This document shows, piece after piece, positions 4,505-12,970 of a DNA stretch of 64,000 bases. The first letter of the stretch is position 1. The number at the start of each line of letters is the position of its first letter. The stretch is from a virus, in the IMG/VR virus record IMGVR_UViG_3300027714_000001, positions 42,180-106,179 of that record; one strand, 5' to 3'. The notes beneath the pieces are model-generated. The model did not search any database. It was not told the origin of the DNA and worked only from the letters and a program-made list of their open reading frames with translations. The position numbers and the translations under genes were made by a program.

Positions 4505-4790
4505 CTGGAATCGAGAAAGGAAACGAAAAATAACCGAGTCACTATAAGTGATCCCGATTTATTGCCGTAGGATAGGTAGTACGTAACCGAAGCAATACGA
4601 CCCTGGAGTGTCAAGCTACAAACACTGGGCGTTATACCTGAAAAAACAAACCAAGAGCATGGCCGTATCAGTTCGAAACAACTGGGTCTTCGTGAAAGCC
4701 GAAGCAATTTAATAAAAGACTTTGAAGATAGATTGCTTCTATCCTAAAATACTTGTACAGACAGGCATATCTACTCAAAGTCTTTTCTTA
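4505..4790 (+). ncRNA. candidate structured ncRNA(s)
   Basis: Promoter 4470-4498, no + ORF, several hairpins; 12-bp stem AAAAGACTTTGA/TCAAAGTCTTTT (4714-4786). Confidence 0.5.
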
Positions 4791-4794
4791 AATT

Positions 4795-4870
4795 GGGGAC
4801 ATAGTGAAACTGGAGATCACACGATTCTTCTAAATTCGTATTCGGGGTTCGAGTCCTCGTGTCCCTACCA
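4795..4870 (+). tRNA. tRNA-Arg(UCU)
   Basis: Loop CTTCTAA, T-loop TTCGAGT, CCA. Confidence 0.9.
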
Positions 4871-4871
4871 A

Positions 4872-4962
4872 GCATGTGTAGACCAGTAAGGATCTGGGGC
4901 GGCCTGTAAAGTCGTCGTTGCCGAGAGGAGCCGTGTAGGATCGTTACCTACCACATGTACCA
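4872..4962 (+). tRNA. tRNA-Tyr(GUA)
   Basis: Loop CTGTAAA, long variable region, T-loop ATCGTTA, CCA. Confidence 0.85.
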
Positions 4963-5142
4963 CATTACTACTAGTATCGGAGAATGCTATGAGAGACAAA
5001 AATAGTTGGATTGAAGGCACAGATGTTTAATAGTGAAACTCAGGGATTTATTAAAGTAGGAGTGTGGGATGGTGAATACCATAGAATCTCACAAGACGAC
5101 TGGCCAGGTGTTTAATTCAAAGGAACTAGTATAACAAATTTA

Positions 5143-5219
5143 GGGTGAGAAGCTTAAGTGGCATAAGCGACTGGCTGTTAACCAGAAGATAGAAGGTTCG
5201 AGTCCTTCCTCTCCCGCCA
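5143..5219 (+). tRNA. tRNA-Asn(GUU)
   Basis: Loop CTGTTAA, G73, CCA. Confidence 0.9.
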
Positions 5220-5225
5220 CATTAT

Positions 5226-5300
5226 AAGGACGAGCATAAGGTATGCGTCGGGTCTCCAAAATCTTGAAAAGACAGAGTTCGATTCTCTGCGTCTTTGCCA
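5226..5300 (+). tRNA. tRNA-Trp(CCA)
   Basis: Loop CTCCAAA, T-arm CAGAG-TTCGATT-CTCTG, G73, CCA. Confidence 0.85.
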
Positions 5301-5338
5301 AATCCTCTACCTTAGGATAGCACATTAGATTGTGTACT

Positions 5339-5360
5339 AGCCCACTTCGGTGGGCTTTTT
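5339..5360 (+). terminator. rho-independent terminator
   Basis: AGCCCAC-TTCG-GTGGGCT followed by a T-run. Confidence 0.85.
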
Positions 5361-5497
5361 ATCCTTCTAAAATAACTTATAAATGTTCTTGCTTAAACGC
5401 TAATTGTTTGCTATAATATGTTTCTGGAATCAAGAAAGGCTTTAGAAAATTTTGAACTTTATAAATGTTAACTCTCTCATCTTAGGAAAATAAATTA

Positions 5498-5818
5498 ATG
5501 AAGAAAATATTATTAGCAGTAACATTAGCCACGATGTTAGTATCGTGTGCAGACAACAAAGTATTACCCCATTATGGAGAAGTAAAAACTTATGGACTAG
5601 TTGATGCAAGTGCAGTAAAACTTCCTTGTGTTAATTATGAAGTAGCTATTGGAAACGTAATCTGGTCAGCTATTTTTGCCCCGACAGTAGCAGTCCCTAT
5701 ATACATGGTAGGCTTTAGTATTATGGAACCGACAAGTGTTGACGAGCTTTGTATGATAAAGACATTTGATGAAACCGAAGTCGGCAACTTGTTTAGAGAA
5801 TACGAAAAAACTTTGTAA
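5498..5818 (+). CDS. putative lipoprotein
   Basis: Signal peptide with lipobox LVSC and a further hydrophobic segment. Confidence 0.7.
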   Translation: MKKILLAVTLATMLVSCADNKVLPHYGEVKTYGLVDASAVKLPCVNYEVAIGNVIWSAIFAPTVAVPIYMVGFSIMEPTSVDELCMIKTFDETEVGNLFREYEKTL

Positions 5819-5859
5819 AACTTCTTGACTAATAGCCAATAACTCGGTATAATAGTTCT

Positions 5860-6210
5860 AGAAATTGAGAATAAAGGCTAAAGCAATTTAGTCTAGCCAT
5901 ACGCTTGAGGCTTAAGATAGCGGGGTCACTTTCAAGACCTATACTATGAAACAGATTCTATAGTCTGTAAAACTCTGGGGTCTAGTAGTTATGTGTCTCC
6001 TTAACAATACTACCGATTCAGTCACACTTCGTATTCAGGGTGATAGTTGGCTACTTAATGCTAGACGCGGGTACTTAGTCTATAAAATATAGTATCAGGG
6101 GATTAACTGGCCACTTTACTTAGCAGTTCGGGAGATCGTCACAGGAATAATGAGCCTGTAAATAAGTGGTGCAAGAGCGTAGAAGTTATAATAACGTGTC
6201 CACTCTAATC
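5860..6210 (+). ncRNA. candidate ~330-nt structured ncRNA
   Basis: Own promoter 5825-5853, no ORF, GCAA tetraloop hairpin and multiple nested helices. Confidence 0.55.
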
Positions 6211-10634: not shown

Positions 10635-10709
10635 AGTCGATTAGCTCAAAGGCAGAGCAGTGGTGTTACATACCAAAGGTTGGGATCTCGGAACTCCCAT
10701 CGACTACCA
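10635..10709 (+). tRNA. tRNA-Val(UAC)
   Basis: Loop GTTACAT, acceptor AGTCGAT/ATCGACT, aberrant T-loop, CCA. Confidence 0.8.
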
Positions 10710-10925
10710 AGTATTTATTCACATCAAGTTGACAAATGTGAATAAATATTTTAACTAAAGGAGAGTACACATGAAATTAGAAACATTTAATATTTTAATG
10801 TTCTTAGTAGAAAAAGTAGAATCGGTAGTGTCAGACATTTCTGTAGCTACAGGTGGCATGTCATTCCAAGAATGGAAAGACGCAGGAGAGCCTAGCTTTA
10901 ATAGCTCTAAAACCGAGGAAGATTA

Positions 10926-11138
10926 ATGGCCACTGAAGCAAAAGTTACCACAGACTATTACTTATGGCCCGATGGAGACTCGTTCCCCTGTGAAGAAGGT
11001 GAGCTGTCTTGGAAGTCTGACGATTATGTCATAGTAGAGATACCTTCTTCTTACGAAGGATGCCATGAAGACTACCTAGAAGGTATGCACATGGAAATCA
11101 ACTTAGGTCAAATGTGCGAGCGCAAGACTATTGTATAA
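10926..11138 (+). CDS. small acidic hypothetical protein
   Basis: GAGGA RBS. Confidence 0.6.
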   Translation: MATEAKVTTDYYLWPDGDSFPCEEGELSWKSDDYVIVEIPSSYEGCHEDYLEGMHMEINLGQMCERKTIV

Positions 11139-11418
11139 GAAATTAAAGAAAGCGAATAACAAACATTGGAAATATTTGTTTGGGCTGCTTAGCGGTAAAC
11201 ATGATGTAGTTATAAAAAGCACATGGGAATCAAAAGCTACAGGCAAAGAAGAATACGACTTTGGAAAAGGTTGGAATAGATACTACAGCTTTAATATATT
11301 GCTGCCTGATTTAAATGACCTAATATTTGACGACACTATTTTAGGTGAAGAAATAACAGGGTTTGACGTAGACCCTGTACAAAAGTTTGATGAAGTAGAT
11401 CGTTTATCAAACAAGTAA
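11131..11418 (+). CDS. hypothetical protein
   Basis: ORF overlapping the upstream stop. Confidence 0.55.
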   Translation: MYKKLKKANNKHWKYLFGLLSGKHDVVIKSTWESKATGKEEYDFGKGWNRYYSFNILLPDLNDLIFDDTILGEEITGFDVDPVQKFDEVDRLSNK

Positions 11419-11424
11419 AAGCAT

Positions 11425-11499
11425 AGGAAAGTAGCTGAGATGGATTAGCGCGGGTGTGAAGTACCCGAGACGGCAGATCGTTACTGCCCTTTCCTACCA
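11425..11499 (+). tRNA. tRNA-Phe(GAA)
   Basis: CGGGT-GTGAAGT-ACCCG, T-loop ATCGTTA, CCA. Confidence 0.85.
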
Positions 11500-11579
11500 A
11501 ATTTATTAAAAAACATGTTGCACAATAACCGATAATTCGGTATAATATGTTTCTGGAATTGAGAAATAGCGAGAAAAAT

Positions 11580-12080
11580 ATGGATTACTTTATTGGTGAT
11601 ACCCACTTTGGACACCAAAATATCTTAGAGTTTGGCAGGCCAGGGTATAAAGACATTGAAGATCACAACGAGACTTTAGTGTCAAACTGGAACTCAGTAG
11701 TAACTCATAAGAACGACAGAGTTTACTTAATGGGTGACGTAGCTTTCTCTAGTCAGTACCAGTATTTAGCTAGACTTAACGGTAAGCTAACTATTGTGTT
11801 AGGAAACCACGACTACCACAGCAAAATAAAGATTATTCAGGACATTAGACCTGACGTTAGATTGTGTGGAGCTGTAGCATACGACAAGAGTTTTATCTTA
11901 ACACACATTCCTGTACATCCTAGTCAGCTAGAGCACAGGTACAGCCACAACATTCATGGTCACTTGCACAGTTTCAAGATTGACGACCCTCGTTACATTA
12001 ACGTTAGTTGTGAACAGATCAATTCTACTCCGATTTCAATTGAAGAAATTAGAAAAAACATATTGACAGACAGCCAATAA
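11580..12080 (+). CDS. calcineurin-like metallophosphoesterase
   Basis: GDTHFGH, MGD, GNHD, THIP and HGHLH motifs; start corrected to 11580. Confidence 0.9.
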   Translation: MDYFIGDTHFGHQNILEFGRPGYKDIEDHNETLVSNWNSVVTHKNDRVYLMGDVAFSSQYQYLARLNGKLTIVLGNHDYHSKIKIIQDIRPDVRLCGAVAYDKSFILTHIPVHPSQLEHRYSHNIHGHLHSFKIDDPRYINVSCEQINSTPISIEEIRKNILTDSQ

Positions 12081-12556
12081 TTCGGTATAATATGTTTCTG
12101 GAATCGAGAAAGGAAACAAAATGTATAGATTATTGTATAAAGGCGTAATTCATGATGTTCATTGTGATTGGTTTATTTTGCACTCAAAAATGTGTAAAAA
12201 TATTAAACACCACAGCTGGAATGTTGATTTCTGTGAGATAGTATAATGAAAAAGTTTATGACTAAGTTATTTACTTTCCTGTACTACACCATTCAGTTTG
12301 TAATACTTTATGGTATATTACGTCCCCTAGTAGGAGTATGAAAATGGATAAAACTGATATATTATTTATTATATTAATAGTATTTTTTATAGGATTAACT
12401 GCGGTTAGTGTAAACACTGTTATAAACACTCCGCAAGAAAAGGTACAGTGTGAATGAAAAATAATGTAATACTTCCCATACTAAAAGTAGTGTCAGCAAT
12501 ACTAGTAATGGTTTTAATATGTGTAGTTGCCCTAAGTATAAATACTTAAAAACAAT

Positions 12557-12631
12557 GCGGGCTTGGTGTTAATGGTAGCACGTTGTCCTTCCAAGTCAAA
12601 TGTGCAGGTTCGAATCCTGTAGCCCGTTCCA
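12557..12631 (+). tRNA. tRNA-Gly(UCC)
   Basis: Loop CTTCCAA, U73, CCA. Confidence 0.9.
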
Positions 12632-12637
12632 AATTAT

Positions 12638-12712
12638 AGCAGAATAGCTTATGTCAGGACAAAGCGTATCCTTCGGGGTAAGAATTCGGTTCGAATCCGA
12701 TGTATGCGATCA
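12638..12712 (+). ncRNA. anticodon-less tRNA-like RNA (cUUCGg tetraloop)
   Basis: D-arm GCTT/AAGC, arm TATCC-TTCG-GGGTA, T-arm TCGG-TTCGAAT-CCGA, weak acceptor, ends TCA. Confidence 0.65.
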
Positions 12713-12718
12713 AACAAA

Positions 12719-12794
12719 TACGTGATAGTTTAAATATGAAAAATACAGGCCATTGCGGCTAGAGATGCTAGTGCAAGTCTGGCTCACGTAACCA
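12719..12794 (+). tRNA. atypical tRNA, undetermined identity
   Basis: Perfect acceptor TACGTGA/TCACGTA plus ACCA; D-loop lacks GG, T-loop TGCAAGT, anticodon loop CATTGCG without U33. Confidence 0.65.
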
Positions 12795-12970
12795 AATTAT
12801 TATAGTAAACTGGTTAATCCACTAATCAAAAATGTAAGCTGCATACCAAAAATTTGCAGGTCAGCGTTGGTTCGCTGAGTAGGATTGATTACCCTATTAC
12901 TTAATTGTGTATATTTGAGTCCCAAGAGGTCTTATGCAACAAATAATTGACTAGTTTACTATAATAATTT
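12794..12970 (+). ncRNA. multi-way-junction RNA closed by a 25-bp helix
   Basis: 12794-12818 pairs with 12946-12970 (2 G-U); internal hairpins CTGCA/TGCAG, TCAGCG/CGCTGA, TAGG/CCTA. Confidence 0.7.

Follow-up and report, generated by a model that had tools for sequence, protein, structure and literature searches.

The window analysed here, a stretch of 64 000 nt from IMG/VR record IMGVR_UViG_3300027714_000001 (positions 42 180 to 106 179), belongs to an uncultivated, metagenomic T5-like (Demerecviridae-type) phage. This identity is evident from the direct terminal repeats and the 106 kb length of the whole genome, from a cluster of about 20 tRNAs (20 or more) that all lie on the + strand, and from head, tail and terminase genes whose nearest relatives are those of Vibrio T5-like phages (47 %). 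There are at least 12 promoter cassettes, nearly identical to one another, that resemble the early promoters of T5, and a single strong intrinsic terminator (5339–5356) is found in 9 kb. Within the tRNA and non-coding RNA region, and on the tRNA strand, lie five long helices (E1 to E5; Table 1), and the same 9 kb contain a GOLLD RNA and several further promoter-driven untranslated units. The promoter furthest to the left in Table 1 is predicted to drive a leader, E1 and tRNA-Arg, and E5 sits between an atypical tRNA and tRNA-Glu (13010). HNH endonuclease genes are located near the elements (8906–9139), tRNA-like fragments neighbour them, and a search for a phage-encoded RNase III found none in this phage.

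Table 1. Positions in the window of the five helices and of the features around them
Feature	Position	Strand	Details
T5-type early promoter	4470..4498	+	TTGACA-17-TATAAT; 12/12 hexamer matches; cassette family D1
E1	4705-4725 / 4775-4795	+	21 bp, one U-C mismatch, 49 nt enclosed
tRNA-Arg	4795-4870	+	nucleotide 1 is G4795, also the last base of the E1 3' arm
Unit 2 promoter cassette	6240..6269	+	family D2; predicted transcription start A6276
Unit 2 5'-terminal hairpin	6276..6344	+	leader 6278-6291 pairs with anti-leader 6328-6341 (14 nt, 93 %)
E2	6338-6359 / 6429-6450	+	22 bp, perfect, 69 nt enclosed
Unit 3 head	6545..6665	+	leader/anti-leader hairpin 6550-6564 / 6592-6606, plus T-arm 6632-6651
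E3	7059-7074 / 7124-7139	+	16 bp perfect plus one G-U, 49 nt enclosed
Promoter of E4 and GOLLD unit	7600..7628	+	TTGACT-17-TATAAT; predicted start 7635
E4	7635-7658 / 7757-7780	+	24 bp (22 Watson-Crick, 2 G-U), 98 nt enclosed
GOLLD RNA	about 7950-8777	+	conserved 3' domain 8344-8777 (RF02032, 175 bits, E 3e-48)
Atypical tRNA plus CCA	12719..12794	+	Rfam tRNA, 30.4 bits, E 1.4e-4
E5	12794-12818 / 12946-12970	+	25 bp (23 Watson-Crick, 2 G-U), 127 nt enclosed
tRNA-His extended acceptor helix	14954..15053	+	21 bp, encloses tRNA-His 14968-15043

All five helices described in the first-pass annotation were recovered by a repeat search and by an independent census of inverted repeats, although the 12 bp assigned there to E1, while real, are just the perfect core of a longer helix. 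The helices are far above chance expectation. With 30–220 nt allowed between the arms, the entire 106 kb genome contains three perfect inverted repeats of at least 14 bp, against a shuffle mean of 0.3, and three of at least 16 bp, against none in the shuffles. A census tolerant of G-U pairs (at least 16 Watson–Crick pairs and at most one mismatch) returned E1 to E5 and the extended acceptor stem of tRNA-His as the sole qualifying helices, all of them within the tRNA region; the tRNA-His helix is the clamp principle of E1 to E5 applied to a genuine tRNA. As had been pointed out, every internal deviation in the helices E4 and E5 (four in total) reads as G-U on the + strand; the − strand has A-C instead. 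This pattern agrees with the selection at the RNA level that was proposed from it, but suggests rather than establishes it, the chance of four same-strand deviations being about 1 in 16 were transitions randomly placed. Predicted folding is also better on the + than on the − strand for E2, E3, E4 and E5 (for E4, −42.2 against −29.8 kcal/mol). The five modules contain no ORF that has a ribosome-binding site, and no homologues of them were found in phage, plasmid and viral-contig collections.

Three of the ten helix ends coincide with natural RNA ends, a number equalled in only 17 of 100 000 random placements. E4 begins at its predicted transcription start, and its 5' arm is the conserved leader (the initial transcribed sequence) of the promoter; the 5' arm of E5 begins at the last A of a tRNA CCA (position 12794); and the 3' arm of E1 ends on nucleotide 1 of tRNA-Arg, the RNase P site (4795). 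No recognised RNA end was found at the helix ends of E2 and E3. The earlier statement that the arms share no sequence holds for E3, E5 and the inner part of E2, whose arms are unique, but fails for the 3' arms of E1 and E4, which have TCTTTTCTYAAWTT in common. This segment is the complement of the promoter leader and recurs at 6328–6341 (family D12), and the outer 7–8 bp of E2 (AATTTCT / AGAAATT) are also leader and anti-leader. Anti-leaders are found only behind leaders of the non-coding type and never behind the nine CTGGAATYGAGAAA leaders. The T-arm in the head of unit 3 is identical at 20 of 20 positions to that of T5 RNA1, and no unusual structure was seen in unit 1 (5861–6235) or in the leader preceding E1. 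End anchoring, together with leader pairing that is restricted to non-coding units, provides concrete rules, open to test, by which such RNAs can be found and dissected.

The enclosed cores are A/U-rich and without demonstrable structure: the small hairpins reported within them do not stand out, folding being no stronger than that of shuffled sequence (z from −1.35 to +0.23). No 7-mer is common to the five cores, and no core matches known RNA families, plasmid or phage sequences, or tRNA. E3 is located inside the 690 nt untranslated unit 3, about 100 nt 5' of ORF 7238–7591, and its surroundings could be just a long 5' UTR of this ORF. The ORF itself has homologues at 75 % and 66 % on other contigs.

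GOLLD RNAs are known to adjoin phage tRNA islands (bioRxiv 10.1101/2024.12.08.627333), and the GOLLD of the window, a full-length match, is located downstream of E4 within one promoter unit. E4 was considered as a stem of GOLLD and rejected, since it lies outside the Rfam match (8344–8777) and, ending at 7780, also outside the region that aligns with the GOLLD of Vibrio phage D260, which starts at about 7950; E4 is a module separate from GOLLD. The D260 GOLLD comes after a tRNA and has no upstream clamp, whereas that of the window has E4 upstream. D260 and its relatives do, however, contain an unannotated, promoter-driven RNA of 168 nt (L039:919-1086) that is built like E4 and similarly placed: D260 too is a marine T5-like phage encoding GOLLD, and the RNA lies in its tRNA region. 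Behind a T5-type promoter, a terminal helix of about 20 bp runs from +2, has the conserved leader as its 5' arm and encloses a core of about 126 nt. This RNA has six compensatory pairs, with wobble-preserving changes in its terminal helix, and D260 also carries a CCA-anchored clamp of 20 bp. The D260 core is conserved and covarying but without detectable similarity to any element of the window, and matches of a covariance model of the RNA to the window are confined to helices.

We think it rather likely that E1 to E5 are the terminal helices of T5-type small non-coding RNA modules, whose ends they would seal or define, possibly after trimming by RNase III. The + strand would be transcribed from the T5-type early promoter cassettes into multi-gene precursors that include tRNAs and the GOLLD RNA, and in each module a segment at or beside a natural RNA end would pair with its complement 50–130 nt downstream. 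In E4, as in the unit 2 and unit 3 heads, this end would be the transcription start; in E5 it would be the CCA of the upstream tRNA, and in E1 the site where RNase P would act on the downstream tRNA. Processing of the tRNA type, perhaps together with RNase III cleavage within the duplex of about 20 bp, would then yield a module with fully paired termini. Such termini should withstand 5'-end-dependent decay as well as 3' exonucleases, and where the promoter is close by, pairing would additionally mask a purine-rich leader that resembles a ribosome-binding site. We infer that the modules are transcribed, processed and stable. Their release by RNase III, or their resistance to nucleases, is plausible, since 18–25 bp is the length of an RNase III substrate and the annotated ends of T5 RNAIV fall inside a 20 bp helix. 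Host RNase III would, however, probably cleave a perfect duplex of 22–25 bp, and this speaks against the full-length helix simply sealing the ends. It is doubtful that T5-like phages generally use clamps anchored on transcription-start, RNase P and CCA ends to make exonuclease-proof RNAs with fast-evolving decoy or sponge cores; if they did, the host tRNA-processing machinery may do the releasing, the cores may target host RNA-binding defence factors or RNases, and the reuse of the initial transcribed sequence as an arm may be an adaptation that marks a cassette as non-coding.

RNase III needs a duplex of roughly two helical turns, and its processing stalks, as in the flanks of 16S and 23S rRNA and the early region of T7, are long helices flanking functional RNA in a polycistronic precursor. 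The helices of the window might be host RNase III sites at which long, terminator-poor transcripts are cut into tRNA, GOLLD and mRNA, with the cores as functionless spacers. Duplexes of at least 20 bp, which fit the enzyme, are found in E1 (21 bp), E2 (22 bp), E4 (24 bp) and E5 (25 bp), whereas E3 (16–17 bp) is short for it. With one strong terminator in 9 kb, endonucleolytic separation would be required, and with none encoded by the phage, RNase III would have to come from the host. Cores that share nothing and fold no better than random also favour this explanation, as do the positions of the RNAIV ends in T5. The cores of the analogous T5 and D260 modules are, however, conserved and covarying, and the T5 products build up as stable RNAs according to their record, so that those cores would not be mere spacers; nor does a cleavage site need anchoring on a transcription start, as in E4. 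Stalks of rRNA enclose kilobase-sized RNAs rather than 50–130 nt, and the early sites of T7 are irregular hairpins, interrupted by internal loops and capped by small apical loops, whereas the helices of the window are near-perfect and their cleavage is putative. On balance we regard an origin purely as processing stalks as unlikely, though worth keeping in mind.

The helices would have no function as RNA if they were by-products of recombination at the DNA level, made as inverted duplications of A/T-rich pieces of promoter cassettes or their flanks in a hyperplastic region. Much-repeated leader or UP-like cassette sequence (D12, D13) is indeed the source of the E1 and E4 arms, of the unit 2 hairpin and of E2 in its outer part, relatives of D260 contain inverted cassette fragments, and the outer 3' arm of T5 RNAIV extends over the upstream part of the promoter that follows and is invariant. 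Pairing nevertheless ends at the predicted transcription start and does not extend into the −10 box (in E4, in D260 unit c and in T5 RNAX), the G-U deviations are restricted to the sense strand, the arms of inner E2, E3 and E5 are unique, coding-type leaders have no anti-leader, and the D260 helix shows wobble-preserving substitutions, all of which makes such an origin improbable. A further idea is that these clamped RNAs serve as display scaffolds, or as decoys, and titrate nucleases or RNA-binding defence proteins of the host. They are located where T5-like phages keep counter-defence tRNAs, of which the T5 tRNA acting against PARIS is an example (PMC11464382), their cores are variable and lineage-specific, as arms-race cargo would be, and tRNA-like fragments lie nearby. 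The cores match no known RNA family, plasmid, phage or tRNA, however, and the sequence does not favour a decoy over any other function, so we give this role a very low probability. Terminal inverted repeats and nearby HNH endonuclease genes might also recall MITEs or relics of homing elements. Every arm pair is single-copy in the genome, however, the flanks have no visible target-site duplications, and no copies occur in phage, plasmid and viral-contig collections; the first-pass annotation was right that these are not copies of one MITE, and that identity is effectively refuted, leaving any such origin barely credible.

The modules proposed here find their counterparts in phage T5, in whose record (NC_005859) the misc_RNA features T5s01 to T5s08, including RNAIII, RNAIV, RNA2H and RNAX, are annotated as 'stable RNA with unknown functions'. 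Like E1 to E5, these lie in the tRNA region, on the same strand as the tRNAs, flanked by tRNAs and early promoters of the T5 type, and they are modules of 70–170 nt whose 5' and 3' ends are closed by a helix, the paired ends that all five elements of the window possess. RNAIII, RNAIV and RNA2H fold as a terminal stem plus hairpins, with encoded terminal helices of 18, 20 and 15 bp respectively. The helix of RNAIII extends from the CCA of RNAI into tRNA-His, which is comparable to the anchoring of E5 and E1, and RNAX forms a leader/anti-leader hairpin from +1, comparable to units 2 and 3 and E4. In the RNAIV family there are compensatory changes in 10 of 46 pairs; mature RNAIV as annotated retains just the inner 7–8 bp of its encoded helix, and the annotated ends of RNAIII leave a 12 bp stem with a 2 nt 3' overhang. 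The helices of the window are longer and more perfect (up to 22–25 bp) than those of T5, and expression and stability have been demonstrated for the T5 RNAs, whereas those of the window elements are predicted.

When all eight T5 RNAs were compared with the window by blastn only T-arm-like matches were found, and Rfam has no family for the T5 stable RNAs. Since there is no sequence homology, E1 to E5 are tied to the T5 and D260 RNAs by architecture and context only, and they are analogues rather than orthologues of the T5 stable RNAs. They look like one more case of a puzzle already known rather than an element of a new kind. A cultured relative would provide a compact system for the study of phage non-coding RNA. 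The T5 stable RNAs were recorded decades ago, and here the same architecture is seen, with wholly different sequences, in a very distant marine relative (47 % identity of head proteins). Because the same design is present with completely different sequences so far away, the comparison argues that what selection keeps in the tRNA operon may be the architecture of a module with paired ends, and no single sequence.

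All five of the long helices reported by the first-pass annotation (E1 to E5, each a terminal helix with the core that it encloses) were recovered from the window by an inverted-repeat search, and their coordinates and pairing are listed below. The whole genome contains three inverted repeats (E2, E3 and E5) that pair perfectly over 14 bp or more around a loop of 30-220 nt, against 0.3 in shuffled sequences; at a threshold of at least 16 bp there are three against zero. When G-U pairs are allowed, about ten weak helices are expected per genome and the same number is found. If 16 or more Watson-Crick pairs and no more than one mismatch are required, the whole genome yields only E1-E5 and the extended acceptor stem around a tRNA-His, all of them in the tRNA region.

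Terminal helices of the E1-E5 modules (window coordinates)
Module	Position	Strand	Helix
E1	4705-4795	+	21 bp, one mismatch
E2	6338-6450	+	22 bp, perfect
E3	7059-7139	+	16 bp perfect plus one G-U
E4	7635-7780	+	22 Watson-Crick pairs plus 2 G-U
E5	12794-12970	+	23 Watson-Crick pairs plus 2 G-U

The helices have a strand bias. As the first-pass annotation had proposed, the internal deviations of E4 and E5 (4 of 4) form G-U pairs on the + strand, the - strand having mismatches at these positions, and the + strand folds more stably than the - strand for E2, E3, E4 and E5, the shuffle statistics of this folding comparison being taken from mononucleotide shuffles. The small hairpins attributed to the enclosed cores did not hold up: in dinucleotide shuffles, which were used for the cores, for the promoter-driven units and for the E1 leader, core stability is not above that of the shuffled sequences (z from -1.35 to +0.23). 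The five cores share no common 7-mer. We note that genome positions 39593-39720, some 2.5 kb before the window begins, hold a perfect 13 bp inverted repeat with a 102 nt loop, possibly another such module.

The source record, that of a T5-like phage, is 106,179 bp long with direct terminal repeats, and the window corresponds to its bases 42180-106179. There are 20 tRNA genes in the window, all on the + strand and spanning 702-17044, with further ones recognized by Rfam. They include a tRNA with the anticodon CTA (15337-15411; amber-reading, and labelled 'Pyl' by ARAGORN) and the tRNA-His, which lies within a 21 bp extended acceptor helix formed by its paired leader and trailer (14954-15053). 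A tRNA-like piece (12636-12712) is situated directly after tRNA-Gly and before an atypical tRNA (12719-12791) that was not detected by ARAGORN or by the wider Rfam scan. The structural genes in the window include those for terminase, portal, a fused prohead protease/major head protein, tail tube and tape measure. The best identity of the head protein is 47 %, to Vibrio T5-like phages; prohead protease and major head protein apparently form one 659 aa frame (48051-50030), and the tblastn matches span both of the Vibrio T5-like genes. A nicotinamide phosphoribosyltransferase-like gene (591 aa, 23988-25763) is located downstream of one promoter cassette.

This promoter cassette is 70-80 nt long (a -35 element, 17 nt, GGTATAAT and a conserved initial transcribed sequence, here called the leader), is present in at least 12 copies, and is similar to T5 early promoters, as seen in comparison with the T5 promoter P16-17. 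The leader has two flavours, CTGGAATYGAGAAA upstream of ORFs and tRNAs, and TAGAAATTGAGAAAAG upstream of ORF-free stretches. Five promoters lie between 4500 and 8800, but ORFs with ribosome-binding sites are found there only at 5498-5818 and 7238-7591, and the module region contains a single strong intrinsic terminator. Nowhere on the + strand is there a complement of the coding-type leader; the complement of the non-coding type is present downstream in three of five cases. This limitation of pairing between the leader and its downstream complement, the anti-leader, to non-coding units is a new observation. In unit 2, with a predicted start at 6276, the leader at 6278-6291 pairs with 6328-6341, and in unit 3, with a predicted start at 6545, the leader at 6550-6564 pairs with 6592-6606. 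Unit 3 is a 690 nt untranslated segment, the head of which (6545-6665) contains a T-arm identical at 20 of 20 positions to that of T5 'RNA1', a tRNA-like stable RNA; its 5′-terminal AGAAATT can pair with AATTTCT just 3′ of the T-arm to give an acceptor-like stem. The promoter-driven unit 1 (5861-6235; 375 nt) is also ORF-free, and has neither a long helix nor an Rfam match; its folding energy is ordinary (z -0.26).

Three of the helices are anchored at natural ends of RNAs. The 5′ end of E4, at 7635, lies 7 nt past the last base of the -10 hexamer (7623-7628), at the start position of T5-type promoters (all transcription starts in the window being predictions by analogy with these), and its 5′ arm is the leader of its own promoter. 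The 5′ end of E5, A12794, is the last base of the CCA following the atypical tRNA (Rfam 30.4 bits), and the 3′ end of E1, G4795, is nucleotide 1 of tRNA-Arg. Set against 58 predicted starts and tRNA ends, three of the ten helix ends lie no more than 1 nt from a member of that set, a result matched by 17 of 100,000 random placements. To find such an end-anchoring rule, together with a statistical test of it, is likewise new.

The claim that the arms share no sequence is correct for E3, E5 and the inner arms of E2, which are unique, but not for the outer 7 bp of E2, which are leader-like, or for the 3′ arms of E1 and E4, both of which carry the promoter-leader complement, as does 6328-6341. The leader-derived arms could be accounted for by rearrangement of the cassettes at the DNA level. 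We regard this as improbable, since it does not account for the arms of E3, E5 and inner E2, which are unique, for the G-U pairs of the sense strand, or for the point at which pairing stops: in E4 it goes no further than the predicted transcription start and leaves the -10 box unpaired, which fits pairing at the level of RNA and not an inverted duplication of DNA. An origin as MITEs is barely credible, the arms being single-copy and target duplications absent, and on this point the first-pass annotation, which held that these are not copies of one MITE, was right.

We infer instead that the modules would be small RNAs, co-transcribed with the tRNAs and the neighbouring GOLLD RNA from strong early promoters, in which a natural end (a 5′ triphosphate start, a CCA end or an RNase P site) would pair with a downstream complement, so that ordinary tRNA processing would release a module RNA without single-stranded tails. 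RNAs without such tails resist PNPase, RNase II, and RppH- and RNase E-dependent 5′-end decay. In promoter-proximal units the pairing may also hide the purine-rich, ribosome-binding-like leader, which the same cassette uses for mRNAs. Host RNase III likely trims inside the helices, since near-perfect duplexes of 21-25 bp are of the right length for the host enzyme; a search for an RNase III encoded by the phage found none. That the helices are purely RNase III stalks with the cores as spacers would suit cores that are unstructured and mutually unrelated, although the analogues in T5 and in Vibrio phage D260 have conserved cores and we think this reading rather unlikely. A decoy function of the clamped RNAs, as first proposed, is compatible with the evidence though unsupported by it, and seems very improbable.

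No homologues of E1-E5 were found among 50,697 phage genomes with megablast and blastn, the only match, in Vibrio phages, being to the 3′ domain of GOLLD. Viral contigs, when scanned with proteins as anchors, gave only prophage or relatives at 48 % or less, or no match, and there were no matches in two metagenome scans for relatives, in exact-pattern scans of viral contigs (for the GOLLD core and for the promoter-leader cassette) or in tblastn with the ORF adjoining the modules. A protein search did find homologues of ORF 7238-7591, at 75 % and 66 %, on metagenomic contigs. At a permissive threshold, the Rfam hits to E1-E5 and to units 1-3 were limited to tRNA, GOLLD and noise from microRNA-precursor models, which any long hairpin will match. 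A role antisense to plasmid genes was rejected, the sole match being the tRNA-Asn gene at 5143-5219.

The GOLLD RNA beside E4 is full-length (7950-8777; Rfam match 8344-8777, 175 bits, E-value 3e-48), with a tRNA-like insert in its linker (about 8410-8475), and, across about 300-430 nt, shares 67-69 % identity with its counterparts in Vibrio phages D260 and D69, where these are annotated as hypothetical proteins. E4 is not part of it, lying outside both the Rfam model and the stretch that aligns with the D260 GOLLD. The presence of clamped modules beside GOLLD in so divergent a marine lineage is also new here.

Phage D260, identified via its GOLLD, has the same promoter cassettes in its tRNA region. 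One is followed by a 22 bp helix enclosing 52 nt, and a second by a 19-20 bp helix that begins at +2, encloses 126 nt and has the leader as its 5′ arm, as E4 does. This leader-anchored RNA of 168 nt (L039:919-1086; OZ195864.1 62893-63060) is promoter-driven and structured, and occurs in 289 Vibrio phage records as two sequence types with 86 % identity to each other; between them the terminal helix shows A-U to G-U and U-G to U-A changes, and the inner helices contain six compensatory pairs. It is not annotated, and 'hypothetical protein' CDS calls overlie it. In another D260 clamp, of 20 bp, the helix begins within the terminal ACCA of a tRNA. The window elements were rejected as homologues of the D260 RNA, its covariance model aligning to the helices only, with the core deleted.

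The design is conserved with covariation in T5 also, the reference record of which lists eight 'stable RNAs with unknown functions' or 'tRNA-like stable RNAs' in the tRNA region. RNAIII, RNAIV and RNA2H are predicted to fold as a terminal stem with two or three hairpins, and the encoded helices (18, 20 and 15 bp respectively) exceed the stems that the mature RNAs have in the annotation; that RNAIV ends inside its 20 bp helix and that RNAIII has a 2 nt 3′ overhang are in line with RNase III trimming, though no proof of it. In a consensus from seven T5-like phages (identity down to 77 %), RNAIV has 46 pairs, ten with compensatory changes, two of these in the terminal helix; the outermost 13 bp of this helix show no variation, and they overlap the upstream region of the next promoter. 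The RNAIII helix runs from the CCA of RNAI into tRNA-His, recalling E5 at its CCA and E1 at its tRNA start, and RNAX (719 nt) has a 13-17 bp leader/anti-leader hairpin at +1, similar to the paired leaders of units 2 and 3. Sequence comparison shows no core similarity between the window elements and the T5 RNAs, so that E1-E5 agree with these in context and architecture but not in homology. The T5 stable RNAs are the closest known objects to E1-E5, by a kinship of design and genomic context.
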